A stretch of DNA of 64,000 nt from Vicinamibacterales bacterium (GTDB lineage: Bacteria > Acidobacteriota > Vicinamibacteria > Vicinamibacterales > CAZQMT01), in contig CBDAOD010000003.1 of assembly GCA_965197935.1 (NCBI GenBank), forward strand, positions 919,171 to 983,170, written 5' to 3'. Positions 5,986-60,464 of the stretch are shown one piece after another. The position numbers were made by a program, and so were the translations under genes. The notes below the pieces were generated by a model. The model was not told the origin of the DNA. It was given only the letters and a program-made list of their open reading frames with translations, and ran no database searches. The number at the start of each line of letters is the position of its first letter. Position 1 is the stretch's first letter.

Positions 5986-5991
5986 GGGCCG

Positions 5992-7053: not shown

Positions 7054-7126
7054 CCCGCCGAAAGTCGGGCCGCGGTGCATGCTACACTCGGATGACCGCC
7101 ACTCGCGCGGGTCGACGGCCCGGCAC

Positions 7127-7216
7127 GGAGAGATGTCCGAGTGGTTGAAGGAGCACGCTTGGAAAGCGTGTGTAGGGGAAACTCTACCGTGGGTTCGAAT
7201 CCCACTCTCTCCGCCA
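7127..7216 (+). tRNA. tRNA-Ser (GGA)
   Basis: GGAGAG acceptor stem, anticodon arm CACGC-TTGGAAA-GCGTG, long variable arm, GGTTCGAATCC T-arm, encoded CCA. Confidence 0.97.
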
Positions 7217-7275
7217 ACTTTTCAGAACCACGTCTTTTCTTAAGAAATAATCCGTTCTTGACTCCTCAAACGGCC

Positions 7276-7322
7276 TGAGTGACATTCTTGAGTGACATTT
7301 TGATCGTCCTCAGGGTCACTCG
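7276..7322. repeat. Short direct and inverted repeats next to the tRNA 3' end, like integrase arm-type sites
   Basis: TGAGTGACATT at 7276-7286 and 7289-7299, plus inverted GTCACTCG at 7315-7322, in a lower-GC patch. Confidence 0.5.
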
Positions 7323-7460
7323 ACATGGGGGACATCTGCCGAGATCCGCCCGACACAACAGTTACGACGACTTCACACACGCATCTGCCCCTGTTTCCTG
7401 TGGGTGTCGCTGGTCACGTGAAGAGTGAAGGACCCGAGGCTTCAAAACTCGCCAGCCTAG

Positions 7461-8874: not shown

Positions 8875-8877
8875 CTA

Positions 8878-10014
8878 GTGTAGTGTCCCTGAAATACCAT
8901 TACACATCAACGACCTGCGTGCAATATAGGCGGGATGAATGATGCCGCCGCCGCTCTGTCCATGGCCGCGAAGGATCGGCGACTCCTGGAACAGTGGGCC
9001 CGTAGTACGTCGGCCCCGCATCGGGTAGTCATCCGCGCGAAGGCGTTGCTGCTGGCGACCGAGGGGGGTTCCAACAGCCGCATTGCCGCGACCGTGGACG
9101 TCAGCCGGCCGACCGTGCTGGCTTGGCGCGACCGGTTTGGAGAGGAGGGCGTTGATTCGGTGTTCGAGATGCGTGAGGGGCGCGGGCGCAAACCGACGAT
9201 CAGTGCGCGCAGGGTCAAAGCCATCGTCCACGCAACGTTGCACCGCACGCCACCGGGGGCGACCCCCTGGAGTTGTCGCACGATGGCGAAGGCGCAGGGG
9301 GTCAGTCGCTCGACCGTGCAGCGGATCTGGGACGCGCATGGCCTCCAGCCCCATCGAGTGGAGACGTTCAAGCTGTCGACCGATCCCGCGTTCGTGGAGA
9401 AGCTGACGGACGTCGTGGGGCTGTACATGAATCCGCCCGAGAAGGCCGTCGTGCTGTGTGTGGACGAGAAGAGTCACATTCAGGCGCTGGACCGGACGCA
9501 GCCCGGGCTGCCGATGAAGAAGGGCCGCTGTGGGACACTCACGCATGACTACAAGCGCCACGGGACAACGACCTTGTTCGCCGCGCTGAACATGCTGACC
9601 GGGCAGGTCATCGGCGAGTGCCACGGCCGGCATCGGCATCAGGAGTTCCTGAAGTTTCTTCGCCAACTCCACCGCGCGTTCCCCTCTCGCCTCGACCTCC
9701 ACCTCATTCTGGACAACTACGGCACGCATAAACATCCGACCGTGCGGGCCTGGCTGGCGGCCCATCCGCGCTTCACGCTCCACTTCACCCCTACCGGCGC
9801 ATCGTGGCTCAACCTCGTCGAGAGTTGGTTCAGCCAGCTCACGCAGAAACGCATCCGCCGCGGGGTGTTTTGCAGTGTCGACGAACTCGTCGCCGCCATC
9901 AACGATTACCTCCAGCGCTACAACGACAACCCCCAACCCTTTGTCTGGACCGCGACGGTCGATACGATTCTAGAGAAGGTTGGGAAGTGCAAAGTTATTC
10001 TTGGGACACACCAC
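8878..10014 (+). mobile_element. IS630-family element (transposase 8935-10017)
   Basis: HTH region, then VLCVDEKS, HDYKRHGTT, LILDNY, SWLNLVESWF. Imperfect IRs GTGTAGTGTCCCTGAAATA / GTGGTGTGTCCCAAGAATA; TA duplication at 8876-8877 and 10015-10016. Confidence 0.95.
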
Positions 10015-10017
10015 TAG

Positions 10018-11430
10018 TACTACTTTGTTAGATCGCACAATTTGGGCGAGATCCGACAAGTGATCTAATTTGAGGACATTGTACTTTTCCGGCGAATTCG
10101 GTACCCTGCGCGGTAGTGCAGGACCGCCGCACGGTGGGGCAGTTGCGTCGCCTGATGAGATGGCTCGAGGCCTTCAAGGCGTGCTTCGGCCATCGCGCAC
10201 AGGAGCTGGCGTTGCGCCGGTACGTCCAGGGGTTGCTCAGCGACAGCCCGCGCAAGTCGATGGAAGCGATGCTGGCGCGGGGGACCGATCCCGGGGGCTA
10301 TCAAGCGTTCCAACACTTCATCACCGATGCGCCGTGGAGTGCCGACGGCGTCTGGCGCTGCCTGCGGGCGGTGCTGCCCGAACGCGAAGGGCTGGTGATC
10401 TTCGCCGGCACGAGTTTCCCCAAGCCAGGGACGTCCTCGGTCGGGGTGGCCCGCCAGTACTGTGGGGCCGTGGGGAAAGTCGCCAATGGCCAAGTGGCGG
10501 TCACCGCGGCGCTGTGGACCGGGCTGCGCGCCTACTTGCTGGGGGCCGCGCTCTATGTGCCCGAGGCGTGGCTGACCGACGCCGCCCGCGATCGGGCGCG
10601 GCTTCCCCGGGGTGTCCGGTTGCAGGCGAAGTGGCGCCAAGCGCTCACCCTGCTCCGGCAGGTGCGCGCCAGCGGCCTCACCGGCACCGGCGTGCTGGCC
10701 GATGCGGAGTTTGGCGATACCGGCCTGTTTCGGGCCATGTGGCATCGGTTGCGGCTCCCCTATGCGGTGGGGATTTCCTCGTCGCAGACCGTGTTCCTGG
10801 GGCGGCCGCGCCTCGGGCACCGGCGGGGCGGCCGGCTGGGGCGCCCGCGCACCCGGCCAGACCTGGCGGCGGGCGTGCGGGCGTACACGGTGGCCCAGGC
10901 CGCCAAGGCGCAGCCGCGGTGGCGGCCCATCAGCTGGCGCAACCGCCGCGGCGGGCGCCGCTGGACGGTCCAGTGTGTGGCCCTGCGGGTGACCCCGGCC
11001 CACGACTGGCGCGACCGCCGGCTCGCCCCCGAGGTGTGGCTGCTGGCCGAACGCGACACGGGCGCGACGCCGCGGACCAAATACTTCTTCGTCAACCTGC
11101 CGGCCACCACCTCCTGGCCGCAGCTCGTCCGACTCGCGCATCAGCGGTGGGCCATCGAGCAGCAGTACCAAGAGTTGAAGACCCACCTCGGGTTGGATCA
11201 CTTCGAAGGCCGCACGTTCCCGGGCTGGCACCATCACGTCGTGCTCACCGCCGTGACGTACAACTTCCTGCAGGCCGAGCGGCGGCGGCACCTCGCCAGG
11301 CTCACCTTTCCAGTGGCCCGCGCGATCGTGCAGGAAATCTTCACCGCGTACCTCTTTGCTCCACGGCCGTTCTACCTGAAGCGCATCGAGGCGCTAAAGT
11401 CGGTGCAATTGCGGATCTAACAAAGTAGTA
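10018..11430 (+). mobile_element. IS701-family element, copy 2 (transposase 10116-11420)
   Basis: 1413 bp, same IRs as copy 1, CTAG at 10014-10017 and 11431-11434; inverted relative to copy 1. Confidence 0.95.
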
Positions 11431-11513
11431 CTAGTGTCCTGTAACAGTAATTCGTGGTGTAAGTCCCGCGCGCGGCGCCCGGCTGGCAGGGCGCGAGGAG
11501 CGAGCATACCGGG
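11431..11513 (+). mobile_element. Left half of a MITE-like element related to 51231-51394
   Basis: End CTAGTGTCCTGTAACAGTAATT resembles TAGTGGACTGTATCAGTCATT; 11475-11511 matches 51275-51311 at 33/37 nt. Confidence 0.65.
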
Positions 11514-11525
11514 CAGCGGGGAACG

Positions 11526-12584
11526 CTACCCGTTCCCGTCGAGCCACCGCTCGATGCCGAACGGGCATTGATTCTCGAGGACGATCCGAACGGCCTCTGG
11601 GAGCGGTCGGCTGAAGCCGGCTTTCGGGCTCGTCGGACCGAACCACTCATCATAGATCTCGTCGTACACCCCCGACGCGATCACATGACACAGAGCGTTG
11701 TCGACCATGTCCTTCCAGTCGGAATCATCCTCGGGCAACAAGACACCGTTGGGGATGCAGAACAGCTCCGGCCCACGCACCTCCCAGTCGTCCGGATTCT
11801 GCGTCTTCGCCTTCAGACTCCGGAGGGTCGTCTCCAGGGTCACGTGGGCGTCGGTCTTGCCTTGGCTCAAGGACAGGAAGCCCACCGAGTGCGTGTCGTG
11901 CGTGATCAGGATGGGCGGAGGGGTCAGCTCTCCGCTCAGCCCCATGTCCGTCAGGAACCTCTCCTCGACGCTGCCCCTCGTGACGCCTATCCTCTGTCCG
12001 GACAGATCCGTCTGCCGCGCGATCGGGCTACTCTTCGACACCAGCGTCATGACGCACGAGACGTTGGTCTGATGAGAGAAATCGATGACCTCTTCGCGCT
12101 CGGGGGTACGACCGGTCGTGCCCAGCACCCAGTCGAGCGTTCCGTTGACGATGAGGGGGATCCGCGTCTGCGGAGAGACCGCCTTGAATTCAAGGTCGAT
12201 GCCGAGGCCCAGCTTGGTCTCGATCGCTCCGTGGAGTGCCTTGCTCAGATCGATGGACCACCCGACCCACTGGCCACTCTCATCGTAGAACCCGAACGGC
12301 GGTGCGCCGTCTCGCGCGCCGACCACGAGTTTCCGCTCTCGCCTGACCTTGTCCAGTACGCTCGGGCCGCCGGTGACGCCGAGATCGTCGTCGGCCATCG
12401 TCGCAGGCGCCCCGCCCGGGACTCGGGTCGACGGGCCAGGGGACTCGCTGCCGCAACCCGCCGACAGCGCGGCGAAGAAGGGAGCGAGAAGAACCGCTCT
12501 CAGAACGCGCCTGGCTGCGTCGCGGCCACGAGGCCGATCTCGACGTTCCAGATCAGGTGGGTTCGGGCGGCCCGGGTGCCGCAT
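11526..12584 (-). CDS. Polar amino-acid ABC-type substrate-binding lipoprotein
   Basis: Lipobox LSAGC, PPFGFYD, TRIPLIVNGTLD, TPEREEVIDFS; GGAGG RBS before ATG 12584. Confidence 0.88.
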   Translation of the reverse strand: MRHPGRPNPPDLERRDRPRGRDAARRVLRAVLLAPFFAALSAGCGSESPGPSTRVPGGAPATMADDDLGVTGGPSVLDKVRRERKLVVGARDGAPPFGFYDESGQWVGWSIDLSKALHGAIETKLGLGIDLEFKAVSPQTRIPLIVNGTLDWVLGTTGRTPEREEVIDFSHQTNVSCVMTLVSKSSPIARQTDLSGQRIGVTRGSVEERFLTDMGLSGELTPPPILITHDTHSVGFLSLSQGKTDAHVTLETTLRSLKAKTQNPDDWEVRGPELFCIPNGVLLPEDDSDWKDMVDNALCHVIASGVYDEIYDEWFGPTSPKAGFSRPLPEAVRIVLENQCPFGIERWLDGNG

Positions 12585-34210: not shown

Positions 34211-35506
34211 ATGCCGTTCTCGACCCTCGGGCTCTCGCCCTCCCTCTGTACTCCGCTCGCGCGACGGGGCTATACACGACCCACGCCCGTGCAAACCGAG
34301 TCGATCCCCGTCGTCCTCAGCGGCAGCGACCTGCTGGCCCGTGCGCAGACGGGAACCGGCAAGACGGCCGCGTTCGGGTTGCCGATGATCGACCGCCTTC
34401 TCGTGCGCGGCCGGCGCCCGGCGCGGACGCGCAAGCCGCGGGGCCTCGTCCTCGTGCCGACGCGCGAGCTCGCGCTCCAGGTGCACAAGGCGCTCACGAC
34501 CTACGGCGCCCCCGTCAACCTGAGAGCCACCGCGGTCTTCGGCGGCGTGCCGATGCGGGCGCAGGTGCGGGCCCTCCAGCGCGGCACCGACATCGTCGTG
34601 GCGACGCCGGGCCGACTCATCGACCACATGCAGCAACGCACCATCGATCTGTCGGCCGTGGAGATCCTCACACTCGACGAAGCCGACCGAATGCTCGACA
34701 TGGGCTTCCTTCCGCCGCTGCGTCGCGTGGTCGGGACGCTTCCGCGCGACCGGCAGACGCTGCTGCTCTCGGCCACATTCTCGAAAGAGGTGGAGCGCCT
34801 CTCCAGCGGGTTCACACGCAAGCCGGTGCGCGTGGACGTCTCGGAGGAGCAGGTCGTGGCGCCAACGGTGACCCATCGCGTCCACCCGGTGGCGGACGGA
34901 CGCAAGGGCGACCTGCTCGCGCACGTGCTGATGCAGCCGCCGGTGGGGCAGGCGCTCGTGTTTTGTAGGACCAAGCGCGGATCGAATCGTGTGGGCGAGG
35001 CGCTCGACAGGGCCGGCGTGCGGGCAGCGGTCATTCACGGCAACAAGAGTCAGGGCGCGCGAAACCGGGCGCTCGGCGACTTCAAGGCCGGCCGCGTGTC
35101 CGTGCTCGTGGCGACCGATCTCGCCGCGCGCGGGCTCGACATCGCGCAGCTACCGCTCGTCGTCAACTATGACCTGCCGCTCGTGGCCGAGGACTACATC
35201 CACCGCGTGGGACGCACCGGTCGGGCTGGGCTCGCCGGCCGCGCTGTCTCGCTCGTGTCCTCGGCCGATCGGAGCCTGCTGCACGACATTCAGCGACTGC
35301 TCCCGTCGTTGCTCGAGCAGGTCGTGGTCGAAGGTTTCGAGGTGACCCAGTCCGCGCGAGCGGCGACGGTGGCGCCGGCGGGCCGGCACCCGCGGGGCTC
35401 GCACGGCCGCGGTTTCACGCCAGGCGCGCGTCGCGGTGCGCGCCCCGCATTCGGCGGAGCGGGGCGGTGCACGGCGAGGCCCGGGCGTCCGGGCTCGCGG
35501 TCGTAG
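34211..35506 (+). CDS. rhlE: DEAD-box RNA helicase (RhlE-like)
   Basis: AQTGTGKT, PTRELA, TPGRL, DEAD, SAT, ARGLD, HRVGRTGRAG; basic tail. Confidence 0.9.
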   Translation: MPFSTLGLSPSLCTPLARRGYTRPTPVQTESIPVVLSGSDLLARAQTGTGKTAAFGLPMIDRLLVRGRRPARTRKPRGLVLVPTRELALQVHKALTTYGAPVNLRATAVFGGVPMRAQVRALQRGTDIVVATPGRLIDHMQQRTIDLSAVEILTLDEADRMLDMGFLPPLRRVVGTLPRDRQTLLLSATFSKEVERLSSGFTRKPVRVDVSEEQVVAPTVTHRVHPVADGRKGDLLAHVLMQPPVGQALVFCRTKRGSNRVGEALDRAGVRAAVIHGNKSQGARNRALGDFKAGRVSVLVATDLAARGLDIAQLPLVVNYDLPLVAEDYIHRVGRTGRAGLAGRAVSLVSSADRSLLHDIQRLLPSLLEQVVVEGFEVTQSARAATVAPAGRHPRGSHGRGFTPGARRGARPAFGGAGRCTARPGRPGSRS

Positions 35507-35546
35507 GCCAGCTCGCGGTTCCCGCCGACACGACTGCCGATTCTGC

Positions 35547-35578
35547 TTGACTCCCGAGTCTCTTCCAGGGTTCATACT
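35547..35578 (+). promoter_or_regulatory. MerR-family-type promoter with long spacer
   Basis: TTGACT (35547-35552), 20-nt spacer CCCGAGTCTCTTCCAGGGTT, CATACT (35573-35578); weak dyad in the spacer. Confidence 0.55.
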
Positions 35579-35729
35579 GGTCTCAGCGCCGAGACCGGCA
35601 CACCTGGATGGGCACACCCGCCGAGGTGTCGGCGGCGCCGCCGGGCGACTGTCGTGGCCGTCGGGACTCTCGGTGAGCGATGGTCGCGATGCAGAGGCGC
35701 GACACGCGAACAATTGCGAGATCAGGAGC

Positions 35730-36146
35730 ATGTTCATCACTCGATCGGTGTGGGTGGGAGTCGTCGCACCCCTGGCGGCGGTCTTCACGTTCGTCGCAGT
35801 GGGCCGTAGTGAAGTGGACACGGCGAACGCGTCGCCGCAGGGGACCCCGGGGCACACCGTTGACGCCGGCGACGCGGGTGTCGCCGTGGAGACTCGAACC
35901 GTTGCGCTCCACATCGAAGGCATGACGTGAGGGGGGTGCCCCCTGGCCGTGCGCCAGGCTCTCCTGAATGTCGACGGCGTCGTCTCAGCAGAGGTATCGT
36001 TCGACGACAAGCGCGCCGAGGTCCGTTGCGACGCAGCGGTCGATGCTGCACTGCTGGTGCAAGCCGTCGAGGACGCCGGCTTTGAGGCTCGGGTCATCGA
36101 CACCGCCGACGACACGGCCAGCGGGGACCGCCGATCGTCCCGTTGA
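35730..36146 (+). CDS. Predicted selenoprotein: exported MerP-like HMA protein, motif GMT-U-GG-C (U67)
   Basis: AGGAG RBS and ATG 35730; hydrophobic N-terminus; LHIEGMT-TGA(35928-35930)-GGCPLAVRQALLNVDGVVSAEVSFDDKRAEV...LVQAVEDAGFEA, in frame to TGA 36146. Confidence 0.88.
35928..35964 (+). promoter_or_regulatory. SECIS-like hairpin
   Basis: Upper stem CCTGGC/GCCAGG (35942-35958) with loop CGTGC 17 nt after UGA; lower stem GGGGGG/CTCTCC. Confidence 0.65.
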
Positions 36147-36592
36147 GAGCGCCGGACGCCCGGGCGCAACAGACGCACAGGCACACCGCAAACGGTCGTC
36201 AGGAAGGGACGCTCTTGAACGACCCCTCCCCATGGGATCCGCGCGCTCTGAACGATCGTCTGCCGGGTGTCGCAAGCGCCGTCTCCGCCCTCCTCGCGGC
36301 CAGTTGCTGTCTCCTGCCGATCGCCTTGATCACCTTGGGGATCGCCGGGGCGGGCATCATGATGACGATGATGCGCTACGAGTGGCTGACACTTCCCCTC
36401 GGCGTGGGTGGCCTCGTGGGCGCCGCCGCCCTGTACGTCAGCAACCGTCGGCGGTGTGAAACGACCGGCTGCCGTTTTGTCGGACAGCGGTTCAACCAGG
36501 CGATGCTGGGGCTCGCTGCGCTGGTCGTGGCAGTGGCGCTATTGCTGAAGGTGTTCCCCGCGTGGACCGCGACGCTGCTACAGCAGCTCTGA
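36143..36592 (+). CDS. MerT-like heavy-metal transport membrane protein (start may be TTG 36215)
   Basis: Three TM helices, AASCCLLP in TM1, loop RRRCETTGC; same Cys layout as MerT. Confidence 0.8.
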   Translation: MRAPDARAQQTHRHTANGRQEGTLLNDPSPWDPRALNDRLPGVASAVSALLAASCCLLPIALITLGIAGAGIMMTMMRYEWLTLPLGVGGLVGAAALYVSNRRRCETTGCRFVGQRFNQAMLGLAALVVAVALLLKVFPAWTATLLQQL

Positions 36593-36604
36593 CGCGAGGG
36601 CGGC

Positions 36605-37453
36605 GTGCTGAGGCCTGACGAAGTCGCATGGATGGCTCTGGCCGCCGTCCTTTCGATGCCCCAGTCTTCGCCGGCCCAGATCGTGGCACCAGCCGGCCGA
36701 ACGCTGTTCAACCGATCGGTGATGCTTCGCAGTTTCGTGCGCGTCGATCACTTCATCGACACCGGACCGGGCGAAGAGACTCGTCGCCTCGTGAACCCGT
36801 ATGCGGTCGTGTGGGGCGTGTATCCCAACGTCAGCGTGACCCTGGTCACGCCCGTGGTCAGCCTGCGACGTCAGACCCCAGGCGGATCCGAGCGACCATC
36901 CCCGCTGACGAGCTTCGGCGATAGCAGCCTCCTGGCTCGCGTGGACGTGTGGCGCCGGCTCGTCCCGGGCGGGTACACGCGGCTCTCGCCGGAAGTCGGC
37001 GTCAAGATGCCCACCGGAGGAACGTTCGGCAGCGGATCGACCGACGCGATCGCCGGTTTGGTCCTGTCTCACGTGCGCGACCCGCATTGGTTGGTCGGTG
37101 ACGTTCAGTTCACCTACACCACGACCGGGGACGGTGACCTTCGCGCCGGCAATCGCTGGCGGTATGATTTCGCATATCTTCACCGTTTGCTCCCGCGAGA
37201 CGGATTGGGCATTCCGACCGTCTTGGCCGTCCTGGAGGTGAACGGTGAACACGGCCGGCACGCCCGCGCTGGCGATGTGCCGCTACCGAATAGCGGAGGC
37301 GATCTGGTGTTCCTCTCACCGGGTGTCGAGCTCATCACGTCGCGGCGGCTCGTCATCGAGTGCTCGGTGCCGATACCGATTCACCGCGATCTCAACGGAT
37401 CGCAGCTGGAACCGGCATGGAGCTTCATCGGGGGCGCGCGATGGCTGTTCTGA
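36605..37453 (+). CDS. Outer-membrane beta-barrel, transporter/MetA-pathway-like
   Basis: Signal peptide, GDSSLLARV, GVKMPTG..GSGSTD, NSGGDLVFLSPG, terminal RWLF. Confidence 0.7.
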   Translation: MLRPDEVAWMALAAVLSMPQSSPAQIVAPAGRTLFNRSVMLRSFVRVDHFIDTGPGEETRRLVNPYAVVWGVYPNVSVTLVTPVVSLRRQTPGGSERPSPLTSFGDSSLLARVDVWRRLVPGGYTRLSPEVGVKMPTGGTFGSGSTDAIAGLVLSHVRDPHWLVGDVQFTYTTTGDGDLRAGNRWRYDFAYLHRLLPRDGLGIPTVLAVLEVNGEHGRHARAGDVPLPNSGGDLVFLSPGVELITSRRLVIECSVPIPIHRDLNGSQLEPAWSFIGGARWLF

Positions 37454-38442
37454 GGTTCCAGGTGGTCGTTGTCTTGCTGGGAGGCTTCGTTGCATCTCTG
37501 ATGCTGGCCGACCACGGGCGGGCTGCCGGACCACCGTACGCCTCGGACGCGACGGACGGAGCCGCGTTGCCCCGGGCCGACCCGCACTACCGGACGGTGG
37601 GACGGTGGGGCGTGGCTGGCGAGCGCCCTGGTCAACTGAACGGTGTGCAGGGGATCGCGGTTGATTCGGCGGGCGAGGTGTACGTCGCAGACGCCGAGAA
37701 CTGCCGCATCCAGGTCTTCAGCCGCGAAGGGGAGTTTCGTCGATCGTGGGGCGAATGCGGGGAGGGCGAGGGCGAATTCATCAAACCAACCGACGTGGCG
37801 GTGGGGGTCGATGACGAGATCTTCGTCGTGGACTTCATGCTCGACCGGCTCCAGGTCTTCGACGGACAGGGAGCCTACCTGCGGGGGTGGGGTACCTCGG
37901 GCACCGGCCCGGGGGAGTTTTCGTCGCCGGTTGGAGTCGCAGCCGGTCGGGACAGGTCCGTCTATGTCGTCGAGTTCTACGGCCATACCATACAGAAGTT
38001 CTCCAGCGACGGGCTCTGGATGGCCACGTGGGGCGGCGAGGGACACGGTGAGGGACAGCTCTACTATCCGGCGAAGATTGGCCTGGGCCCGGACGGTGGT
38101 GTCTATGTGGCCGACGCACATAATGCCCGCATTCAACGGTTCGATCGCGAGGGCCGGTTCGTCGGTACCTGGGGTCAGGCTGGTACGTGGTACGGTCATC
38201 TCAACGATCCGGTAGACGTCGTCATCGCGCGCGACGGTTCGATGCATGTGGCCGACAGTGCGAATTTTCGTGTGCAGTGGCTGGCCGCCGATGGCAGCTA
38301 CATCGCGGAGTGGAAGTTGCCCGGAGAGACGGCCGGCCGGTTTCAGTCGCCGCAGGCGCTGGTGCAGGATGCGCAGGGCTATCTCTACGTGAGCGATACG
38401 GCTGGCAACCAGATCTACAAGCTGGAGGCGGTGCGACCATGA
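37441..38442 (+). CDS. Exported NHL-repeat six-bladed beta-propeller
   Basis: Repeated P..IAVD..G.VYVAD..N.RIQ.F units with WG..G.GPGEF linkers; start and stop overlap both neighbours. Confidence 0.92.
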   Translation: MAVLRFQVVVVLLGGFVASLMLADHGRAAGPPYASDATDGAALPRADPHYRTVGRWGVAGERPGQLNGVQGIAVDSAGEVYVADAENCRIQVFSREGEFRRSWGECGEGEGEFIKPTDVAVGVDDEIFVVDFMLDRLQVFDGQGAYLRGWGTSGTGPGEFSSPVGVAAGRDRSVYVVEFYGHTIQKFSSDGLWMATWGGEGHGEGQLYYPAKIGLGPDGGVYVADAHNARIQRFDREGRFVGTWGQAGTWYGHLNDPVDVVIARDGSMHVADSANFRVQWLAADGSYIAEWKLPGETAGRFQSPQALVQDAQGYLYVSDTAGNQIYKLEAVRP

Positions 38443-40205
38443 AGAGAGTGATCAGACATCTCGCGCGGGCGGGGCTCGCCAGCGTCACGACCGCGGTACT
38501 GCTACTCACGGCGGCTCCGGCAGTCGCCCAGGTGGATCAGGCATGGGTGCGCGTCGATGGTCTGACTTGACCGCTCTGAGCCTATGGGGTCGAGAAGGCC
38601 CTCCGACGCCTGGATGGCGTCGATCGTGTGACGGTGGATCTGAGAGCCGGTACGGCTGTCGTGCAGTCGGCGGAAGGGGAGGGGTTCGATCCGACCTCGA
38701 TCGCCACGGCGGTTCGAGACGCGGGATTCAGCGCCGAGCGGATCGATGTGACAGCCGTCGGCACCGTGGTGAATGAGGGTGGCGCCGCTCGACTGGAGAT
38801 GACCGCTCCATTGACGGCTCTCCGCCTGCGGGACGGAACAAAGACCGCACAGCTGAAGGAACGCCGCGGTCTTCTCCAGGGGCCGCTACGTCTCACGGGC
38901 CGGCTCGAGCCGGCCCGTGAGGGGCAGCCTGCGCTCCTGGCCCTCGAGACCTGGGAGCCGGTTGATGACGGGAGTGCGAGAAGGGATCGATCAGATCCGA
39001 GGTGGCAGGCGGAGGCTTCGCCACCCGCGATCGGCGAGCTGGAGATGCTCGCGTCGCCGGCTGGACCGAAGAGCGGGCAGCCGCAGCTCCACCGACCCCA
39101 GGAGGGCCGCGTCATCCTGAGCTGGCTCGAGCCCGGCGCGTCGGCCAAGACCCGGCTGCGTTTCGCGGAGCGTGACGGGAGCGGCTGGTCGGCTCCGCGG
39201 ACGGTAGTGGATGGCGAAGAGTTCTTCGTGAACTGGGCGGACGTCCCATCCGTGGTTCGGCTGGCCGACGGCCGCCTCGCGGCGCACTGGCTGAACAAGA
39301 GCGGACCGTCCACCTATGCCTACGATGTCCGACTGAGGATATCGGATGACGGCGGCGGGGTGTGGTCGTCCGCGCTCACGCCCCACCGTGACGGAACGCT
39401 GACCGAGCACGGCTTCGCGTCGCTGTTCGACTGGGCTCCAGGCGGCCTGGGCCTCGTGTGGCTCGACGGCCGGGAGATGAGCGCCGAGAGCGGGCCCGGG
39501 CGGGACGACAGAGGCTCGATAACCTTGCGGGCGACGACGCTATCGCCCGATCTCGAATTCGCCCCTGAGGTTCTCCTCGATGGCCGCGTCTGTGAGTGTT
39601 GTCCGACGGCGGCGGTGCAGACCGACCAGGGAGTGGTGGTCGCCTATCGTGATCGCAGCGACGAGGAAGTACGCGACATCGCTACGGTTCGGTATCACAA
39701 CGGGAGCTGGAGCGACCCCGTCATCGTTCATCGGGATGGCTGGCAGATTCGCGGATGTCCGGTGAACGGTCCGGCGCTGGCGAGCGACGGTCAGATCGTC
39801 GCTCTGGCCTGGTTCACGGCCGAGGCCGGCGACGGTCGGGTCCAGGTGGCGTTCTCCCAGGACGCAGGCGCCTCGTTCGGTCGGCCGATCCGCATCTCCA
39901 GCGACGTGGCGCTCGGGCGTGTCGACCTCACCTTGCTCCCGGACCGGTCGGCGCTCGTGACCTGGATCGGCTCCCGAGCCGGAACGTCGGAGTTCCTGCT
40001 CCGACGGGTGGCACGTTCGGGCGAGATGGGGGCTCCCCGGTCGATCGTGGCCATCGACTCGAGCCGCGCGAGCGGCGTGCCGCGCCTGGTGCGGTCGGGT
40101 GACGAGCTCGTATTCGCGTGGACCGAGACCGGGGCGGTCTCGCGCGTGCGCACGGCGGTGGCAGCGCTCGTCGAGACGAAAGTGTCCCCGACCCGGTCGC
40201 ACTAG
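38439..40205 (+). CDS. Predicted di-selenoprotein: signal peptide, HMA domain (GLT-U-PL-U; U44, U47) and BNR/sialidase-like propeller with CECC and GCPVNGP
   Basis: ATGA overlap with the NHL stop; VRVDGLT-TGA(38568)-PL-TGA(38577)-AYGVEKALRRLDGVDRVTVDL is in the same frame as track ORF 38628-40205; 588 codons. Confidence 0.85.
38568..38622 (+). promoter_or_regulatory. Two tandem SECIS-like hairpins after the UxxU codons
   Basis: GGGGTC-GAGAA-GGCCCT (38586-38602) and CGACGCC-TGGAT-GGCGTCG (38604-38622). Confidence 0.5.
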
Positions 40206-46194: not shown

Positions 46195-46249
46195 GCCGGG
46201 CGCCGCGCCGTCCTTGGTGCGACGCAGGACTTTCACCACGGGCTGCTAG
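46195..46249 (-). mobile_element. MITE/IS terminus remnant abutting IS701 copy 3
   Basis: Reverse complement CTAGCAGCCCGTGGTGAAAGTCC...GCGCGGCGCCCGGC shares blocks with 11453-11483 and 54568-54592. Confidence 0.5.
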
Positions 46250-47662
46250 TACTACTTTGTTAGATCCGCAAGTGCACCGACTTTAGCGCCTCGATGCGCT
46301 TCAGGTAGAACGGCCGTGGAGCAAAGAGGTCCGCGGTGAAGATTTCCTGCACGATCGCGCGGGCCACTGGAAAGGTGAGCCCGGCGAGGTGCCGCCGCCG
46401 CTCGGCCTGCAGGAAGTTGTACGTCACGGCGGTGAGCACGACGTGATGGTGCCAGCCCGGGAACGTGCGGCCTTCGAAGTGATCCAACCCGAGGTGGGGC
46501 TTCAACTCTTGGTACTGCTGCTCGATGGCCCACCGCTGATGCGCGAGTCGGACGAGCTGCGGCCAGGAGGTGGTGGCCGGCAGGTTGACGAAGAAGTATT
46601 TGGTCCGCGGCGTCGCGCCCGTGTCGCGTTCGGCCAGCAGCCACACCTCGGGGGCGAGCCGGCGGTCGCGCCAGTCGTGGGCCGGGGTCACCCGCAGGGC
46701 CACACACTGGACCGTCCAGCGGCGCCCGCCGCGGCGGTTGCGCCAGCTGATGGGCCGCCACCGCGGCTGCGCCTTGGCGGCCTGGGCCACCGTGTACGCC
46801 CGCACGCCCGCCGCCAGGTCTGGCCGGGTGCGCGGGCGCCCCAGCCGGCCGCCCCGCCGGTGCCCGAGGCGCGGCCGCCCCAGGAACACGGTCTGCGACG
46901 AGGAAATCCCCACCGCATAGGGGAGCCGCAACCGATGCCACATGGCCCGAAACAGGCCGGTATCGCCAAACTCCGCATCGGCCAGCACGCCGGTGCCGGT
47001 GAGGCCGCTGGCGCGCACCTGCCGGAGCAGGGTGAGCGCTTGGCGCCACTTCGCCTGCAACCGGACACCCCGGGGAAGCCGCGCCCGATCGCGGGCGGCG
47101 TCGGTCAGCCACGCCTCGGGCACATAGAGCGCGGCCCCCAGCAAGTAGGCGCGCAGCCCGGTCCACAGCGCCGCGGTGACCGCCACTTGGCCATTGGCGA
47201 CTTTCCCCACGGCCCCACAGTACTGGCGGGCCACCCCGACCGAGGACGTCCCTGGCTTGGGGAAACTCGTGCCAGCGAAGATCACCAGCCCTTCGCGTTC
47301 GGGCAGCACCGCCCGCAGGCAGCGCCAGACGCCGTCGGCACTCCACGGCGCATCGGTGATGAAGTGTTGGAACGCTTGATAGCCCCCGGGCTCGGTCCCC
47401 CGCGCCAGCATCGCTTCCATCGACTTGCGCGGGCTGTCGCTGAGCAACCCCTGGACGTACCGGCGCAACGCCAGCTCCTGTGCGCGCTGGCCGAAGCACG
47501 CCTTGAAGGCCTCGAGCCATCTCATCAGGCGACGCAACTGACCCACCGTGCGGCGGTCGTGCACTACCGCGCAGGGTACCGAATTCGCCGGAAAAGTACA
47601 ATGTCCTCAAATTAGATCACTTGTCGGATCTCGCCCAAATTGTGCGATCTAACAAAGTAGTA
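46250..47662 (-). mobile_element. IS701-family element, copy 3 (transposase 46260-47564)
   Basis: 1413 bp, same IRs, CTAG at 46246-46249 and 47663-47666. Confidence 0.95.
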
Positions 47663-47807
47663 CTAGTACCCACAGTCTGAAAGACGGATACGATGTCCAC
47701 GATGGTGGAGACGACCACATGGCCGCCGTTTCGGCCTACAGTGGGCGGTCTGACAACGTGGTAGTTAACCGGTGAGGTAACGACGGACCGAAGGGGGGCG
47801 AAGCACC

Positions 47808-49692: not shown

Positions 49693-50176
49693 GGGCGGGC
49701 CCTCTCTGCTCGACCTGCGACTCCGGCGCAGCGAGGTCAGGATCCTGGTGACAGGGCCGGGCATGCTCTACGAAAAGCTCCGTCTCGTCACCTCGCTGAG
49801 CGTTTCCGAGGGGTGCCATTACCGCAGCATGCAACGCCTCGCGAGCGATCTGGTCGCCACGGCGCTGTGCGGCGCGCAGGGCTCACGACCGGCTGAGATT
49901 CGGGTCGTGGGTCGCCGGACGAGCGCCGTCCTCGAGATCGAGCCGGGTCCGTCCAGCATGTATCAGAACGAGCTGGTGCTTCGCACCCGCAACGGCTGGT
50001 CGTTCGACCGCGTCATTGGTCGTGCCCTCGCCGCGGGGTACGAGAAAAAAGACTACATCGTCGCCCTCGAGCCCATCCCGGCGACCGGGCATCTCGAGCA
50101 TCATGCCGTCCCCGGCCTGTCGGGGGAGGGCGACCCGCACCAGGGTCACGGCCGCGGAGGACGTCACCATGGATGA
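49613..50176 (+). CDS. Hypothetical protein with basic N-terminus and His-rich C-terminus, coupled to tyrosinase
   Basis: GGGAGG RBS; ends GHLEHHAVPG...PHQGHGRGGRHHG; stop overlaps the tyrosinase start. Confidence 0.65.
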   Translation: MAKRKIRTRRRARKRRVPPPPTYVLGKGGPSLLDLRLRRSEVRILVTGPGMLYEKLRLVTSLSVSEGCHYRSMQRLASDLVATALCGAQGSRPAEIRVVGRRTSAVLEIEPGPSSMYQNELVLRTRNGWSFDRVIGRALAAGYEKKDYIVALEPIPATGHLEHHAVPGLSGEGDPHQGHGRGGRHHG

Positions 50177-51233
50177 GCGTCGCAGCGTCGTCGCGCTGGC
50201 ACTCGATACCTCCGCACGCGATGATTTCCTCGAGGTCCTGATCCGGCTCAAGCACCGCCAGGTCGTCGGGGCCCCGGCCGGCTTCAGTGTCTACGATCAG
50301 TTCGTTCTCATCCACGGCGCGATCATGGCGCTACAGGTCCCCCTGTGGCCCGGCACCGTCAACGTCGGTCACTGGAATATCGGCTTCTGCCCCTGGCACC
50401 GACTCTACCTGCGGGAGTTCGAGCTGGCACTGCAGAACGAGGTTGGCGGGGTCTCGCTGCCCTACTGGGACTGGACGGACCACCCCGGTGCGCTGAATCG
50501 TCTCTTTACCGACGACTTTCTTAGCGAGCTGCGCTCTGGCGCGGCCAGTCCGGTGACGAACGGCGTCCTTCGCAACCCGGTACCGGTGGCGGACCGTCCC
50601 GACTGGTGGCCGACGAGCACTGGGGCGACCGGATTTCCGGTCTTCATCGAGGAGCAACGCGGGCCGTCTCTGAGCCGCGGCACGCCCTTGGGGGTCAGCT
50701 GGCCGCCAAGCGCCCAATCGATTGAGACCATCGAGAACCTCGATGTGTCCTCGTCGACACTGCATCGCTACTGGGTGTTCTGGATCGCGCTCGAGGGAGG
50801 CGTGCCCAACGTGTCCCTGGGCGCGAATCTCGGTACGCTGGCCAGTCGAACCCACAACGCGGGGCACAATCTTATCGGCGGCCACATGGGTGGTAGCTAC
50901 TCGCCCAACGACCCCGTGTTCTTTCTGCACCACTCGAACGTCGACCGGATCTGGTTCAACTGGCAGCAGAACATGCTCGCGGCGCATCCAGGGACCACAC
51001 ATCCCGACCACTATCCGCCGGAGGATGACGTCACGCCGTGGGACGGGGAGCCGATTCCGCGCGGACACCGGATCGACGATGCCCTCTGGCCCTGGGTCGG
51101 GGGTGCCGCCGGGTACGATGCCACGAACTTGAGTCCGCTTGGGAAGAGCCTGCTGCCCGACACTGGCGCTGCGCCGCCGGTTGCGGTGAGAGATGTCCTC
51201 GACATTGCGTCTATGGACTACCAGTACGTTTAG
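50169..51233 (+). CDS. Tyrosinase (type-3 di-copper)
   Basis: CuA His in LIHG, VGHW and FCPWHR; LPYWDW; CuB THNAGHN and DPVFFLHHSNVDRIW. Confidence 0.92.
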   Translation: MDERRSVVALALDTSARDDFLEVLIRLKHRQVVGAPAGFSVYDQFVLIHGAIMALQVPLWPGTVNVGHWNIGFCPWHRLYLREFELALQNEVGGVSLPYWDWTDHPGALNRLFTDDFLSELRSGAASPVTNGVLRNPVPVADRPDWWPTSTGATGFPVFIEEQRGPSLSRGTPLGVSWPPSAQSIETIENLDVSSSTLHRYWVFWIALEGGVPNVSLGANLGTLASRTHNAGHNLIGGHMGGSYSPNDPVFFLHHSNVDRIWFNWQQNMLAAHPGTTHPDHYPPEDDVTPWDGEPIPRGHRIDDALWPWVGGAAGYDATNLSPLGKSLLPDTGAAPPVAVRDVLDIASMDYQYV

Positions 51234-53097: not shown

Positions 53098-54237
53098 CTA
53101 CTTCGCGAGAACGAGCGGCTTGCCGACGAGCTTGCCTGGATCGGCGCCCGGTTTCGGGACGAACTTGTTCACCCATCCGCCGTCCCAGCTGGCGACATAG
53201 ACGTTGCCATCCTGGTCCACGTCGAGCTGGTGCGGGCGCGACAGGCCCCCCGCAAAGCCTCCCCGCGTCCCTCCGTACGCGCCCCAGTGGTACTCGAGCT
53301 CGCCGTCCCGGCTGTACTTGAGCATGCGGTTCAGTCTCGCCGAGATCACCCAGACCGCGTCGTGCTCGTCGATGAAGACGCCAACGGGATCGGAGATGTC
53401 GGGCCATTCCTCGATGAACTCACCGTCCTCCGTGAAGATCTGAATGCGGTTGTTGGTCCGGTCGCCGACGTAGACGCGGTGATCCCGGTCGACCGCGACG
53501 CCGTGAACGAGGTCGAACTGCCCAGGGCCGCTCCCGAGCTCCCCCCACTCCATCACGTACTCGCCGCCCGCGTTGTACTTGACGATGCGCGAGTGCCAGT
53601 ACCCGTCGCCGAGATAGAAGCTGCCGTCGGGGAGGAAGGCGAGCACCGCCGGGTCACCGTAGGTGAAGGGACCGGGGTGCGGGTTTGCCCGCGCCTCTGC
53701 CCGGCTCGTCGGGTGGTTGGGGTCGACGAGCCGCATCACCAATCCACTTCCGTCGTTGGTGAACTTGAGGATCTGCATGTTGACCCCCCTGCCGCCACCG
53801 CGCTCGACGACCCAGACGTGGCGCTCCGGATCGTAGGGACTGATGTACACCTGGTGGGGCTTGTTGAGGATCGAGTCCCACTGCGTCCATCTCTCCACGA
53901 TGGCGCCGGTCCGGTCGGCGACCACGAGGTAGTTCGTGCCGCCCTCCCGCTCTTGCCCTTCAGCGTTTCGGTCCCCCCACACCGCCACGATGATCCGGTT
54001 TGGGTTGTCCACCGCGATGCCCGACACCTGCCCCCAGGTCCACGGTCCCTCGTGGTCGGGCGCCGGCTTCCACCAATTCTCGACGGCCTCGTATTCACCG
54101 GTCCTCTCGTCTCCACCCTTCATGATCGCTGCCTGCGATCCCGATTGCGGCTCGGCCTGGCTCTCGACGGCGTAGGCCGAGAGCATCGCCACCGCGGCGG
54201 CGAGGACAGGGGCCACACGCATACGCTCCGGTCTCAT
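53098..54237 (-). CDS. NHL-repeat protein (PAL-like)
   Basis: GAGGAGG RBS, WWKPAPDH, DGYWHSRIVKY, GPGQFDLVHGVAVD, PHQLDVD. Confidence 0.88.
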   Translation of the reverse strand: MRPERMRVAPVLAAAVAMLSAYAVESQAEPQSGSQAAIMKGGDERTGEYEAVENWWKPAPDHEGPWTWGQVSGIAVDNPNRIIVAVWGDRNAEGQEREGGTNYLVVADRTGAIVERWTQWDSILNKPHQVYISPYDPERHVWVVERGGGRGVNMQILKFTNDGSGLVMRLVDPNHPTSRAEARANPHPGPFTYGDPAVLAFLPDGSFYLGDGYWHSRIVKYNAGGEYVMEWGELGSGPGQFDLVHGVAVDRDHRVYVGDRTNNRIQIFTEDGEFIEEWPDISDPVGVFIDEHDAVWVISARLNRMLKYSRDGELEYHWGAYGGTRGGFAGGLSRPHQLDVDQDGNVYVASWDGGWVNKFVPKPGADPGKLVGKPLVLAK

Positions 54238-54464
54238 GATGCCTCCTCTTTGGAAGGGCTTCCGAGCAACGTGCTTGTTCACCCCGGTCGTCCCCGCAGA
54301 GCCTTCGCCGCCAGCAGCTTCACGTGCGCGCCGCCTCGCACCGACGGAGCCGTCGTCGCCGGGATGGCGCCATCGTCACGCCCTGACTCTGCCAGGGAAG
54401 CCGACCCGTGTCGACGCCGCAGCGCCGCACTCGATTGGTCGCGCTGGTCACGACCTGGGCTCGA

Positions 54465-56404: not shown

Positions 56405-56441
56405 GTCTGTTGCGACGGACGGCGTTGGTGCACGACTCTAG

Positions 56442-57434
56442 TACTACTTTGTTAGATCGCACAATTTGGGCGAGATCCGACAAGTGATCTAATTTGAGGA
56501 CATTGTACTTTTCCGGCGAATTCGGGACCCTGCGCGGTAGTGCACGACCGCCGCACGGTGGGGCAGTTGCGTCGCCTGATGAGATGGCTCGAGGCCTTCA
56601 AGGCGTGCTTCGGCCAGCGCGCACAGGAGCTGGCGTTGCGCCGGTACGTCCAGGGGTTGCTCAGCGACAGCCCGCGCAAGTCGATGGAAGCGATGCTGGC
56701 GCGGGGGACCGATCCCGGGGGCTATCAAGCGTTCCAACACTTCATCACCGATGCGCCGTGGAGTGCCGACGGCGTCTGGCGCTGCCTGCGGGCGGTGCTG
56801 CCCGAACGCGAAGGGCTGGTGATCTTCGCTGGCACGAGTTTCCCCCAGCCAGGGACGTCCTCGGTCGGGGTGGCCCGCCAGTACTGTGGGGCCGTGGGGA
56901 AAGTCGCCAATGGCCAAGTGGCGGTCACCGCGGCGCTGTGGACCGGGCTGCGCGCCTACTTGCTGGGGGCCGCGCTCTATGTGCCCGAGGCGTGGCTGAC
57001 CGACGCCGCCCGCGATCGGGCGCGGCTTCCCCGGGGTGTCCGGTTGCAGGCGAAGTGGCGCCAAGCGCTCACCCTGCTCCGGCAGGTGCGCGCCAGCGGC
57101 CTCACCGGCACCGGCGTGCTGGCCGATGCGGAGTTTGGCGATACCGGCCTGTTTCGGGCCATGTGGCATCGGTTGCGGCTCCCCTATGCGGTGGGGATTT
57201 CCTCGTCGCAGACCGTGTTCCTGGGGCGGCCGCGCCTCGGGCACCGGCGGGGCGGCCGGCTGGGGCGCCCGCGCACCCGGCCAGACCTGGCGGCGGGCGG
57301 GCGGGCGTACACGGTGGCCCAGGCCGCCAAGGCGCAGCCGCGGTGGCGGCCCATCAGCTGGCGCAACCGCCGCGGCGGGCGCCGCTGGACGGTCCAGTGT
57401 GTGGCCCTGCGGGTGACCCCGGCCCACGACTGGC
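56442..57434 (+). mobile_element. IS701-family element, copy 4, 3'-truncated
   Basis: CTAG at 56438-56441 and intact left IR; identity with the other copies stops after CACGACTGGC at 57434. Confidence 0.93.
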
Positions 57435-59820
57435 CAGTCTGGCCGCCACGTTCGGCCGGGGGGCAATGACCAACCACTGGAAGGACATCAAGAACGCCGA
57501 TGTCGTCCTGGTGATGGGAGCGAACCCGGCGGAGAACCACCCCTGCGGTTTCAAGTGGGCCGTCGAGGCGCGTGACCACCGCGGCGCCAAGCTGGTCACC
57601 ATTGACCCGCGCTTCACGCGGACTTCGGCGGTCGCCGACAAGCACCTGCAGATCCGGCCGGGCGCCGACATCGCGGTGCTCGGCGGGTTCATCCGTCACA
57701 TCCTCGAGCACGACCTGTATCACGCCGACTACGTCCGTGCGCACACCAATGCGTCATTCATCGTGACGGGGGAGTTTGGCTTCGAGGATGGCCTGTTTGC
57801 CGGATTCGACGAGGCGGCCAGCGCCTACGACAAGACAGCCTGGGACTACCAGCGGGGCGCCGACGGGTACGTGCGCCGGGACCCGTCGCTCGAGGACCCG
57901 CAGTGCGTCTTCCAGCTCCTGAGGCGGCACTACAGTCGCTACACCCCTGACGTCGTCGCGCAGATCGCCGGCTGCTCGGAGGAAGACTTCCGCCGGATGG
58001 CCGACATCATCTGCTCGACCGGGACCGGCCGACCGGGTCGGGACGATCATGTACGCCGTCGGCTGGACGATGCACACGGTGGGCAGCCAGATCATCAGGA
58101 CGGCGGCGATCGTCCAGCTGTTGCTCGGCAACATCGGGCGCCCCGGCGGGGGCATCAACGCGCTGCGCGGTCATGCCAACGTGCAGGGTGCCACCGACCA
58201 TGCGATCGTCGCCGACATCCTTCCGGGTTATCTCAAGATCCCGACGCCTGGCCAGACCTCGCTCCGTGAGCACTTCGACGACTCGACGCCGAAGCCCCTC
58301 GTCCCGGACACGGTCAACTACTGGGGGAATTACCCGAAGTTCTATGTCTCGCAGATGAAGGCGTGGTTCGGCGAGCACGCGACCGAGGCGAACGACTTCG
58401 CCTACGACTACCTGGGCAAGCCAGCCGACGATGCGACCTGGCTGAGCATCTGGAACGAGGCGTTCCAGGGCCGGCTCGAGGGTTTCATCGCGCTCGGGTT
58501 CAACCCACTCCTGGCCGGTCCCGATGTGGCGCGTCTGCTGCAGGCGATGTCCAGGCTGAAGTGGAAGGTGGTCATCGATCCCTTCATGCTCGATTCGGCC
58601 GAGTTCTGGAAGGCGCCCGGCATGAACCCGGCGGAGATCGACACCGAGGTCCTGTATCTGCCCAGCACGCACTGGATCGAACGCGATGGTTCGTTCACCA
58701 ACAGCGGCCGGTGGGCGCAGTGGAAGGAGCAGGCGATCGATCCGCCGATCGGCGTGCGGTCAGATACCTGGATCCTGTCCGAGCTGTTCTGGCGCGTGAA
58801 GGAGCTCTATCAGGCGGAGGGGGGCGCGTACGACGACCCGATCCAGTACCTGACCTGGGGCTACTTGAACCCGCGCGAGCCGACGCTGGTCGAGCTGGCG
58901 CAGGAGATCAACGGCCGCGATCTGACCACCGGCCGCTTGCTGCGTCGTTCGGCGAGCTTCGGGACGACGGCACGACCGCCTCGGGCAACTGGCTCTACAG
59001 CGGGAGCTACACCGAGGCGGGGAACCAGATGGCCCGGAAGGGAACCGCCGACCCGACCGGGATGGGTATGCACCACGGCTGGGCCTTCAGCTGGCCGCTC
59101 AACCGGCGCGTGCTCTACAACCGCGCCTCCGCCGACGCGGAGGGTCATCCCTGGGATCGAAGCCGCGCGGGCATCGCCTGGGACGGACGGGAGTGGGTTG
59201 GCGACGTGCCCGACTACGGCCGGACGACGCCGCCCGGCGGACCGGGCGCCTTCATCATGACGGAGGATGGCGTGGCCCGGCTGTTCAGCAGCCACCTCGC
59301 CGACGGGCCGTTCTCCGAGCACTACGAGCCGGCCGAGAGCCCGACGACCAACACCCTGCACGAGAACGTGCCAGTGAACCCGGTCGTCAGGTGGTACGAC
59401 GGCGTTCGCGACACGCTCGCCCAGGCGGGCGACGACTTTCCGTACGCCTGCACCGTGTATCGCGTCGTCGAGCGCGAGCACTTCGTGACCAGCAACGTCC
59501 CGTATCTGGTCGAGGCGATGCCCGACTTCTTCGTCGAGGTGCCCGACGGGCTGGCGCGGGAGAAGGACATCCCCAACGGCAGTCGTGTCCGTGTCTGGTC
59601 GAAGCGGGGCGAGGTCGAGGGCACGGCGGTCGTCACCAAGCGGATCCGGCCGCTCACGGTCAACGGTCGAACGGTCTGGACGATCGGCATCCCGGTCCAC
59701 TGGGGCTTCGTGGGGCTGACGACCGGATCGATGGCCAATCAGCTCGCGCCGTTCATCGGTGACGCCAACACCCGGTGCCCCGAGTTCAAGGCGTTCTGCG
59801 TGAATCTCGAGAAGGCCTGA
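57431..59820 (+). pseudogene. fdnG: Formate dehydrogenase-N alpha subunit, lacking roughly 200 N-terminal aa, with two indels (~58027, ~58942)
   Basis: SLAATFGRGAMTNHW, NPAENHP, DPRFTRTS, YAVGWT, NALRGHANVQGATD, FSEHYEP, PVHWGF, PEFKAF. Confidence 0.9.
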
Positions 59821-60464
59821 TGGCCGACACCCTCTCCATCCGGCGCGTGTCGGCGAGCCCGAGGGGCACGATCCCGCTCGACGCGCTGCGCTCGGGCGGG
59901 CCGACCTACGCGAAGCTGGTGGACATCTCGAAGTACATCGGCTGCAAAGGCTGCGAGGTCGCCTGCAAGGAGTGGAACGACCTGCCGGTCGAGCCGACGG
60001 CCAACTTCGGCAGCTACCAGAGTCACCAGGATCTCTCGCCCGCTACCTGGCTCCTGATGCGGTTCGACGAGGTGGAGGTCGACGGCGATCTGCGGTGGCT
60101 GATCAAGAAGGATGCCTGTCTCCATTGTGAGGACCCCGGGTGCCTGTTCGCCTGCCCGGCGCCGGGCGCCATCGTGCAGTACACGAACGGCATCGTCGAC
60201 TTCAATCAGGAGAACTGCATCGGCTGCCAGTACTGCGTCACCGGGTGCCCATTCGACATCCCGCGCTTCGACAGGAACACGCGCACGGTGTCGAAGTGCA
60301 ACATGTGCGTCGACCGGGTCGAATCGGGTCTCGAGCCCGCCTGCGTCAAGACGTGCCCCACCAATGCCATCGCCTGGGGGAGCAAGCAGGACATGCTCGC
60401 GCTGGCCGATCGGAAGGTCGAGACGCTGAGGAACCGGGGCTACGCCAAGGGGATGTCCCAGTAG
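59820..60464 (+). pseudogene. fdnH: Formate dehydrogenase beta (4Fe-4S) subunit, C-terminally cut by IS256; first Cys is Tyr
   Basis: SKYIGCKGCEVAC, CLHCEDPGC, CIGCQYC, KCNMC..R...PACVKTCP; ends GYAKGMSQ* inside the IS end. Confidence 0.88.

Follow-up and report, generated by a model that had tools for sequence, protein, structure and literature searches.

A probable selenoprotein of the HMA fold, encoded with an in-frame UGA and a conserved hairpin beside a MerT-like gene, in a Vicinamibacterales genome

Within a 64,000-nucleotide stretch of contig CBDAOD010000003.1 from a Vicinamibacterales bacterium (positions 919,171 to 983,170; hereafter, the window), a small gene that we call gene A encodes a heavy-metal-associated (HMA) domain in which the codon for the first metal ligand is an in-frame UGA. 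We consider it quite probable that this UGA is translated as selenocysteine (Sec) through the action of SelB on a hairpin at 35942-35958, and that the product is an exported Sec-x-x-Cys HMA protein that takes up a thiophilic metal for transfer to the MerT-like membrane protein encoded beside it. In the proposed mechanism, the UGA at 35928-35930 would be decoded by Sec-tRNA(Sec) that the elongation factor SelB brings in; SelB would be recruited by the 17-nt hairpin starting 11 nt past the UGA, and the ribosome would then finish the beta-alpha-beta-beta-alpha-beta HMA fold. After export, the selenolate/thiolate pair would bind a soft metal, with Hg(II) or Cu(I) as candidates by analogy, and the MerT-like protein would take over the metal at the Cys-Cys pair of its first membrane helix, as MerT does from MerP. 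The features discussed are located in Table 1.

Gene A opens at an ATG (35730) and runs to a TGA at 36144-36146, giving 139 codons (138 residues and the final stop codon) that are interrupted once, by the in-frame TGA at residue 67. A mechanical list of open reading frames (ORFs) splits the gene into two pieces, 35436-35930 and 35949-36146, just as an earlier sequence-only reading of the window had reported. Residues 64-70 read G-M-T-[UGA]-G-G-C, so that the first ligand of the HMA loop is UGA-encoded, and Cys-form homologs read GMTCGGC at this place; translation and Pfam alignment both confirm the earlier placement of this TGA at the first Cys of a GMTCxxC loop. Once Cys is substituted at the TGA, the translated product aligns with positions 2-62 of the 62-position Pfam HMA profile (PF00403) and scores 52 bits (cut-off 24.8). 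GC content by codon position is alike on either side of the TGA (0.70/0.53/0.79 upstream and 0.80/0.49/0.79 downstream), a pattern that is that of real genes in this window, which has a GC content of 66.5%. The continuation of the frame through a complete HMA fold, also claimed before, is borne out by the length of this match and by the codon-position signal. Judged from the full-length Pfam match and the sequence matches in the PDB, the fold of gene A is settled, and it is that of a generic HMA domain, because MerP, CopZ and copper-ATPase metal-binding domains match about equally in the PDB searches. By eye, the N-terminus (MFITRSVWVGVVAPLAAVFTFVAVG) resembles a signal peptide, and export of the product is predicted on this basis.

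The minimal E. coli selenocysteine insertion sequence (SECIS) element comprises 17 nt, folded into a stem-loop that lies 11 nt past the UGA. In gene A, CCUGGC (35942-35947) pairs with GCCAGG (35953-35958) around the loop CGUGC (35948-35952) at -9.6 kcal/mol, and the UGA is separated from the hairpin by 11 nt and from the loop by 17 nt. The bacterial SECIS (bSECIS) model (PMC13188914) calls for a stem of 4-16 bp closed by 3-9 loop nucleotides, a G at loop position 1 or 2, a distance of 16-37 nt from UGA to loop and a minimum free energy of -7.5 kcal/mol or lower. The gene A hairpin agrees with the model on all four counts (4/4), having a 5-nt loop with G at position 2 followed by U, a stem of 6 bp, a distance of 17 nt and the energy given above, and the G-containing loop described in the sequence-only reading is found at the spacing stated there. 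Like the E. coli fdhF and fdnG elements and the bSECIS model (PMC13188914), it is a coding stem-loop directly after the UGA with a small loop carrying G then U at positions 2-3; it differs from the E. coli elements in being unrelated in sequence and in having no bulged U, and its binding by SelB is predicted. A scan of the window with Rfam returned one tRNA only, and no family matched the hairpin.

In order to collect UGA-containing relatives, metagenome contigs were scanned with the DNA pattern [D/E]-G-M-T-TGA-G-x-C, which yielded at least 120 matches; the pattern demands TGA at the ligand codon, so TGA at that codon is built into the matches. Among the matches listed, 87 remain open for at least 55 codons past the TGA, and these are 83 HMA genes and 4 false positives. 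Together with the window, the 83 HMA genes give 72 distinct sequences, all with TGA at the codon where gene A has it. The 31 closest among the matches listed (…GMTUGGC[P/A]L[A/V]VRQAL…) were aligned without gaps to gene A, for 32 sequences in total, and unguided folding of this alignment with RNAalifold yielded one helix, exactly the 35942-35958 helix of gene A. The gene A hairpin equals the family consensus at 17/17 positions, and 98.4% of cells in the helix are paired across the 32. Codon choice in the helix is narrow, with Ala as GCC in 25/25 cases, Val as GTG in 32/32, Arg as CGC in 29/29, Gln as CAG in 27/27, and Leu as CUG in 29 and UUG in 2. Synonymous entropy is 0-0.35 bits in the helix versus 1.29-2.16 bits at 21 other conserved four-/six-fold codons (Mann-Whitney p = 0.001, the floor for a comparison of 4 with 21), and nucleotide identity, averaged over sequence pairs, is 0.91 within the helix compared with 0.60 elsewhere. 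The helix is thus maintained by selection at synonymous sites. The earlier claim of a two-stem hairpin stands for its 6-bp helix, which is conserved, and fails for the GGGG/CCCC helix right after the UGA, which is absent from the RNAalifold consensus of the 32 homologs. A ratio of nonsynonymous to synonymous substitution downstream of the UGA was discarded, as synonymous sites were saturated (dS >1) and the ungapped alignment was offset by one residue.

A second, soil subfamily (…GMTUGACP…ALEGL…; L043-L159, for example L045 and L144) is without the gene A-type helix and has an invariant helix of its own, GCCCU-GGA-AGGGC, 32 nt after the UGA. This helix shows zero synonymous variation, with GCC, CTG and GGG each used in 29/29 cases, and depends on an invariant GGG Gly codon. 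A scan of reference genomes with the Cys-substituted protein (peptide HIEGMTCG) found TGA at the motif in 0/40 loci, a result biased to Cys-forms by the substitution, and these loci were reused as the Cys-form control; a first protein search with gene A returned three distant Cys-form matches only.

Table 1. Location of the features discussed, in window coordinates, and what each assignment is based on
Feature	Position	Strand	Basis
Gene A, HMA (MerP/CopZ-like) protein, predicted export	35730..36146	+	translation, Pfam, codon-position GC, homologs
N-terminal hydrophobic signal/anchor of gene A (MFITRSVWVGVVAPLAAVFTFVAVG)	35730..35804	+	read by eye from translations
UGA putatively read as Sec67, first Cys position of GMT-C-GG-C	35928..35930	+	translation, Pfam alignment
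TGC, second metal ligand, Cys70 of U-G-G-C	35937..35939	+	translation
SECIS-type hairpin of gene A, 6-bp stem CCUGGC/GCCAGG, loop CGUGC	35942..35958	+	energy, RNAalifold, synonymous sites
MerT-like membrane protein, ASCCLLP in first hydrophobic segment and C-ETTG-C pair	36215..36592	+	profiles, homologs
Outer-membrane-like protein, weak MetA-pathway/phenol-degradation match	36605..37453	+	Pfam PF13557 18.6 bits (cut-off 22)
NHL-repeat beta-propeller protein	37360..38442	+	Pfam NHL 112.6 bits
Gene B, signal peptide + HMA (GLT-U-PL-U-AYG) + linker + BNR/sialidase-like propeller	38441..40205	+	translation, Pfam
First UGA of gene B, first Cys position of HMA loop	38568..38570	+	translation
Second UGA of gene B, second Cys position of HMA loop	38577..38579	+	translation
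Gene B hairpin 1, GGGGUC/GAGAA/GGCCCU	38586..38602	+	-8.8 kcal/mol
Gene B hairpin 2, CGACGCC/UGGAU/GGCGUCG, 31 nt after second UGA	38604..38622	+	-12.5 kcal/mol
FdnG-type formate dehydrogenase alpha-subunit remnant	57435-59820	+	PDB 1kqf match from residue 198, E = 3e-73

The gene following gene A encodes the MerT-like membrane protein, which scores below the profile cut-offs (20.1 bits against 32.9 for Pfam PF02411, and 22.7 against 150 for NCBIfam NF010314). Two Cys pairs can be read from its translation, ASCCLLPIALITLG in the first membrane helix and RRRCETTGC after the second, with the topology assigned by reading. Among the matches listed, a MerT-like homolog lies on the same short locus as the UGA-containing HMA (HMA-U) gene in 61 loci, directly adjacent where inspected; identity is 55-72% in the closest subfamily, and the CC motif is Cys-Cys in 55/56 homolog alignments, with TGA in none. 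The MerT-like gene is downstream of the HMA gene in the subfamily of the window and upstream in the soil subfamily. Since 24/27 of the closest MerT-like homologs align only from about residues 8-14 of the product started at TTG 36215, a start near this codon, roughly 70 nt past the gene A stop, appears more likely than one at TTG 36143. The overlap of the gene A stop with the next gene that had been proposed would hold if translation started at TTG 36143, and is lost with the start that most of these homologs favor.

When the whole window was scanned for TGAs flanked on either side by coding signal, 17 sites stood out, and on inspection two places lay within a single gene, 35928 and 38568/38577. 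These comprise three TGAs in two genes of one cluster, all at HMA metal-ligand codons. The second gene, gene B, lies about 2.4 kb downstream of gene A and is a second selenoprotein candidate, overlooked in the sequence-only reading. Its hairpin 2 is equaled by 2.8% of control TGA sites. A gene-B-like gene at locus L136 reads GMF-U-GL-U-AYG, also with two TGAs, and has the helix GGGAUC/AAUC/GAUCCC at the hairpin 1 site and CAGCGCCU/GGA/AGGCGUUG at the hairpin 2 site, with both strands changed in each, in a comparison of two sequences only. The propeller of gene B (39100-40205) spans about 410 residues and is assigned to the 'sialidase family', which has >7000 members; four invariant Cys (C-x-C-C-P-T and G-C-P-V-N-G-P) are present in 60/60 aligned propeller homologs and may form a metal or redox site. 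Inspection of the neighborhoods of three stand-alone propeller homologs showed housekeeping contexts and no HMA or MerT genes, and general linkage therefore does not explain the gene B fusion.

Several observations weigh against the decoding of the gene A UGA as Sec. By itself the hairpin is weak evidence, as it is not significant in such GC-rich DNA: among 1515 control TGA trinucleotides in the window, 55% have some qualifying hairpin and 9% have one equally stable, and when compared with shuffled sequence the 68-nt fold reaches a z-score of 0.02. Its significance comes from the comparison with homologs and not from the single sequence. Covariation in that comparison is thin, with compensatory change at one pair in three sequences (two with UA and one with GU in place of CG). 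In addition, the UGA-containing sequences (U-forms) are mutually related, so that statistics overcount independent events and p-values are overstated, including that for the presence of a model-compatible hairpin at the same position in 82% of 72 U-forms versus 11% of 44 Cys-form HMA domains (p = 6e-13). GC content is equal in this last comparison (64.4% for U-forms and 63.7% for Cys-forms), and the contrast appears large despite the kinship and holds for two different helices. Lack of conservation of the hairpin among UGA-containing homologs had been named beforehand as a refuting outcome, and the hairpin proved to be conserved, with a consensus structure in the 32, evidence of synonymous selection and Cys-forms that lack it; the SECIS element proposed downstream of the UGA is upheld by this conservation and by its agreement with the bSECIS model.

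The other adverse points are those from which a relic could be argued, that is, a true selenoprotein family in a genome that has lost Sec decoding, with a 66-residue fragment as the product of gene A, and genes A and B as young pseudogenes. The genes selA, selB, selD and that for tRNA-Sec were all not found within the 64-kb window, several insertion-sequence copies lie in it, and the lipobox L-A-G-C of homologs (L044, L046, L072, L113, L135) is V-G-R in gene A (G-R, 35802-35807), with Arg in place of the lipobox Cys; the gene A product, unlike its relatives, is probably not lipidated. A partial insertion sequence (56438-57434) abuts the start of the FdnG-like coding sequence, which sets in at about residue 203 in the numbering of E. 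coli FdnG, a few codons past Sec196, and the remainder of that gene lies in three frames. This truncated gene is the window's only other candidate selenoprotein gene, and its condition would fit a lineage that is losing selenoproteins; the remnant itself neither shows nor excludes Sec use. We nevertheless regard a relic as unlikely, as the HMA domains of both genes contain no stop or frameshift besides the three TGAs, the gene A hairpin keeps every consensus position, and the MerT-like partner is intact with both Cys pairs. The genes for Sec machinery usually reside in other parts of a genome, so failing to find them in 64 kb tells little, and selA, selB, selC and selD are presumably present in the genome of gene A. 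After the FdnG remnant, an ORF at 59775-60464 is rich in Cys-x-x-Cys, and its 4Fe-4S (FdnH-like) label comes from motif reading alone.

Read-through can generally be promoted by a stable hairpin that closely follows a stop codon, and the UGA might be read by a near-cognate tRNA (Trp or Cys) or through another recoding signal, with the hairpin merely slowing the ribosome and selenium playing no part. Such read-through is, in our view, very unlikely. All three TGAs in the two genes coincide precisely with metal-ligand Cys codons, where Trp would destroy the site; the hairpins fit a SelB-type bSECIS in loop sequence and spacing; and the nearest curated family carries a selenoprotein annotation. 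Furthermore, at the metagenomic locus L096 an HMA-U gene is accompanied by selA, selB, the tRNA-Sec gene (selC) and an AIR-synthase-family (SelD-like) gene at distances of about 0.2-5.7 kb, and the SelA and SelB genes there have full domain sets. That the TGA arose by sequencing error from TGC or TGT, or that two unrelated short ORFs abut by chance, is extremely improbable: TGC to TGA is one base change and frame changes in the FdnG-like region could be assembly errors, yet the TGA recurs at the same codon in the 72 distinct sequences, which come from many samples, two more TGAs stand at the equivalent ligand codons of gene B, and both halves of gene A join into one HMA domain. The L096 region (5049-11697, about 7 kb) comprises selD-like, LysR-family, tRNA-Sec, selB, selA, thioredoxin-reductase-like and HMA-U genes, and the product of its HMA-U gene is a 69-residue, cytosolic CopZ-like protein with U-x-x-C.

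Sec decoding of gene A would place it among known proteins, as HMA-fold selenoproteins are already curated as NCBIfam NF041115 and NF045683 and are covered in reviews (PMC13188914, PMC9312934); the novelty implied by the sequence-only reading was overstated. The best NCBIfam match of gene A is NF041115 ('UxxU_metal_bind', metal-binding (seleno)protein), at 77.4 bits over profile positions 2-73 of 74, short of the curated cut-off of 95. Marine relatives score 81.8, 86.2 and 90.3 bits, the soil sequence L045 scores 99.4 bits, above the cut-off, and gene B scores 35.5 bits despite its U-P-L-U motif. Gene A shares with NF041115 a single HMA domain with Sec (as predicted for gene A) in the metal-binding loop, and it differs in having U-x-x-C rather than U-x-x-U, an N-terminal signal/anchor and a dedicated MerT-like partner gene. 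By these scores, gene A classifies as a divergent U-x-x-C relative of NF041115 that falls below the curators' threshold.

The description of gene A as MerP-like is supported, short of strict MerP identity. With MerP (TIGR02052; PDB 1afi, 1osd) it has in common a single HMA domain with a GMTCxxC-type loop, predicted export, PDB matches to MerP chains at E ~1e-11, and an adjoining MerT-type gene with Cys-Cys in the first helix and a second Cys pair. Strict MerP identity does not hold, as the score of 59.8 bits against the MerP equivalog TIGR02052 is below the cut-off of 92.55, and neither merA nor merR is present among the scanned ORFs. Gene A also differs from MerP in the predicted Sec at the first Cys position and in the gene order, HMA and then MerT-like. 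The 'MerT/CopZ fusion-like heavy metal transport selenoprotein' NF045683 likewise combines MerT-like and HMA modules with Sec in metal handling, whereas in the window the modules are separate genes, scoring 43 and 19 bits against a cut-off of 375. MerT-family selenoproteins with a C-U motif (bioRxiv 10.1101/2022.07.06.499078) and a GOS 'putative mercuric transport protein' (PMC2398784) have been described; in the window, Sec would instead be in the HMA loop, and the CC of the MerT-like protein stays Cys-Cys. A P-type ATPase (E1-E2, COG2217) shares the U-x-x-C motif in its N-terminal HMA domain (PMC2398784; PMC9312934), which there is a cytosolic part of a large pump, whereas gene A encodes a small, free-standing protein with predicted export. 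A GOS 'MerP' selenoprotein was considered as a member of the same family and rejected, as it consists of 33-residue fragments (…AGTUCQSGV…) unlike gene A.

Between the MerT-like gene and gene B lie the genes for the outer-membrane-like protein and for the NHL-repeat propeller, the latter probably with a true start downstream of 37360. Parts of the five-gene cluster recur together in three loci: L136 has an outer-membrane-like homolog next to its gene-B-like gene, and in L143 and L155 the HMA-U/MerT-like pair is joined by NHL homologs. The Pfam scan of window ORFs, which left out the smaller ones, revealed neither a mercuric reductase (merA) nor a MerR regulator, and the flanks of the cluster are housekeeping genes and insertion sequences. 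The reductase-less cluster appears to be conserved. It is conceivable, although we hold it doubtful, that the genes from 35730 to 40205 form one selenium-dependent, extracytoplasmic system for the capture of a soft metal or metalloid without mercuric reductase; the five genes meant are those for the HMA Sec-x-x-Cys protein, the MerT-like protein, the outer-membrane-like protein, the NHL propeller, and the HMA Sec-x-x-Sec protein fused to a propeller with invariant C-x-C-C...C. If this were true, the fusion of a diselenol HMA domain to a propeller would represent a novel architecture that serves its own function. About 10-14 kb downstream of the cluster lie another NHL-repeat propeller gene (53098-54282, minus strand) and a gene with a tyrosinase domain, a copper enzyme (50016-51233, plus strand).

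Existing knowledge of the mechanism of selenoprotein synthesis is unchanged by these data. Standard gene calling fragments gene A and its relatives, and they fall just under the NF041115 cut-off; because gene calling splits its members and the cut-off excludes them, a family that is widespread in soil and marine samples, given the number of matches in the metagenome scan, is being missed. The conserved hairpins constitute two clean SECIS variants in one protein family and could widen the SECIS model. A selenolate in an exported metal-binding loop, combined with a MerT-like importer and no reductase, would suggest high-affinity capture of a thiophilic metal, for instance Hg or Cu, and such capture by the cluster would bear on environmental mercury and copper cycling. 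The less ordinary elements, namely the U-x-x-U HMA-propeller fusion and the apparently conserved cluster without a reductase, might be a lead to something new, a prospect to which we attach only a small chance.

Mobile elements are present on both sides of the cluster. Three insertion-sequence copies of about 1.42 kb, at least 99.4% identical, are located at 7457-8879, 10013-11434 and 46246-47667, and the partial copy next to the FdnG remnant is a truncated fourth. The insertion sequence encodes a 434-residue DDE_5 transposase, and a DDE_3 transposase gene at 8935-10017 sits between two oppositely oriented copies. A Mutator-family transposase is encoded at 62317-63378.

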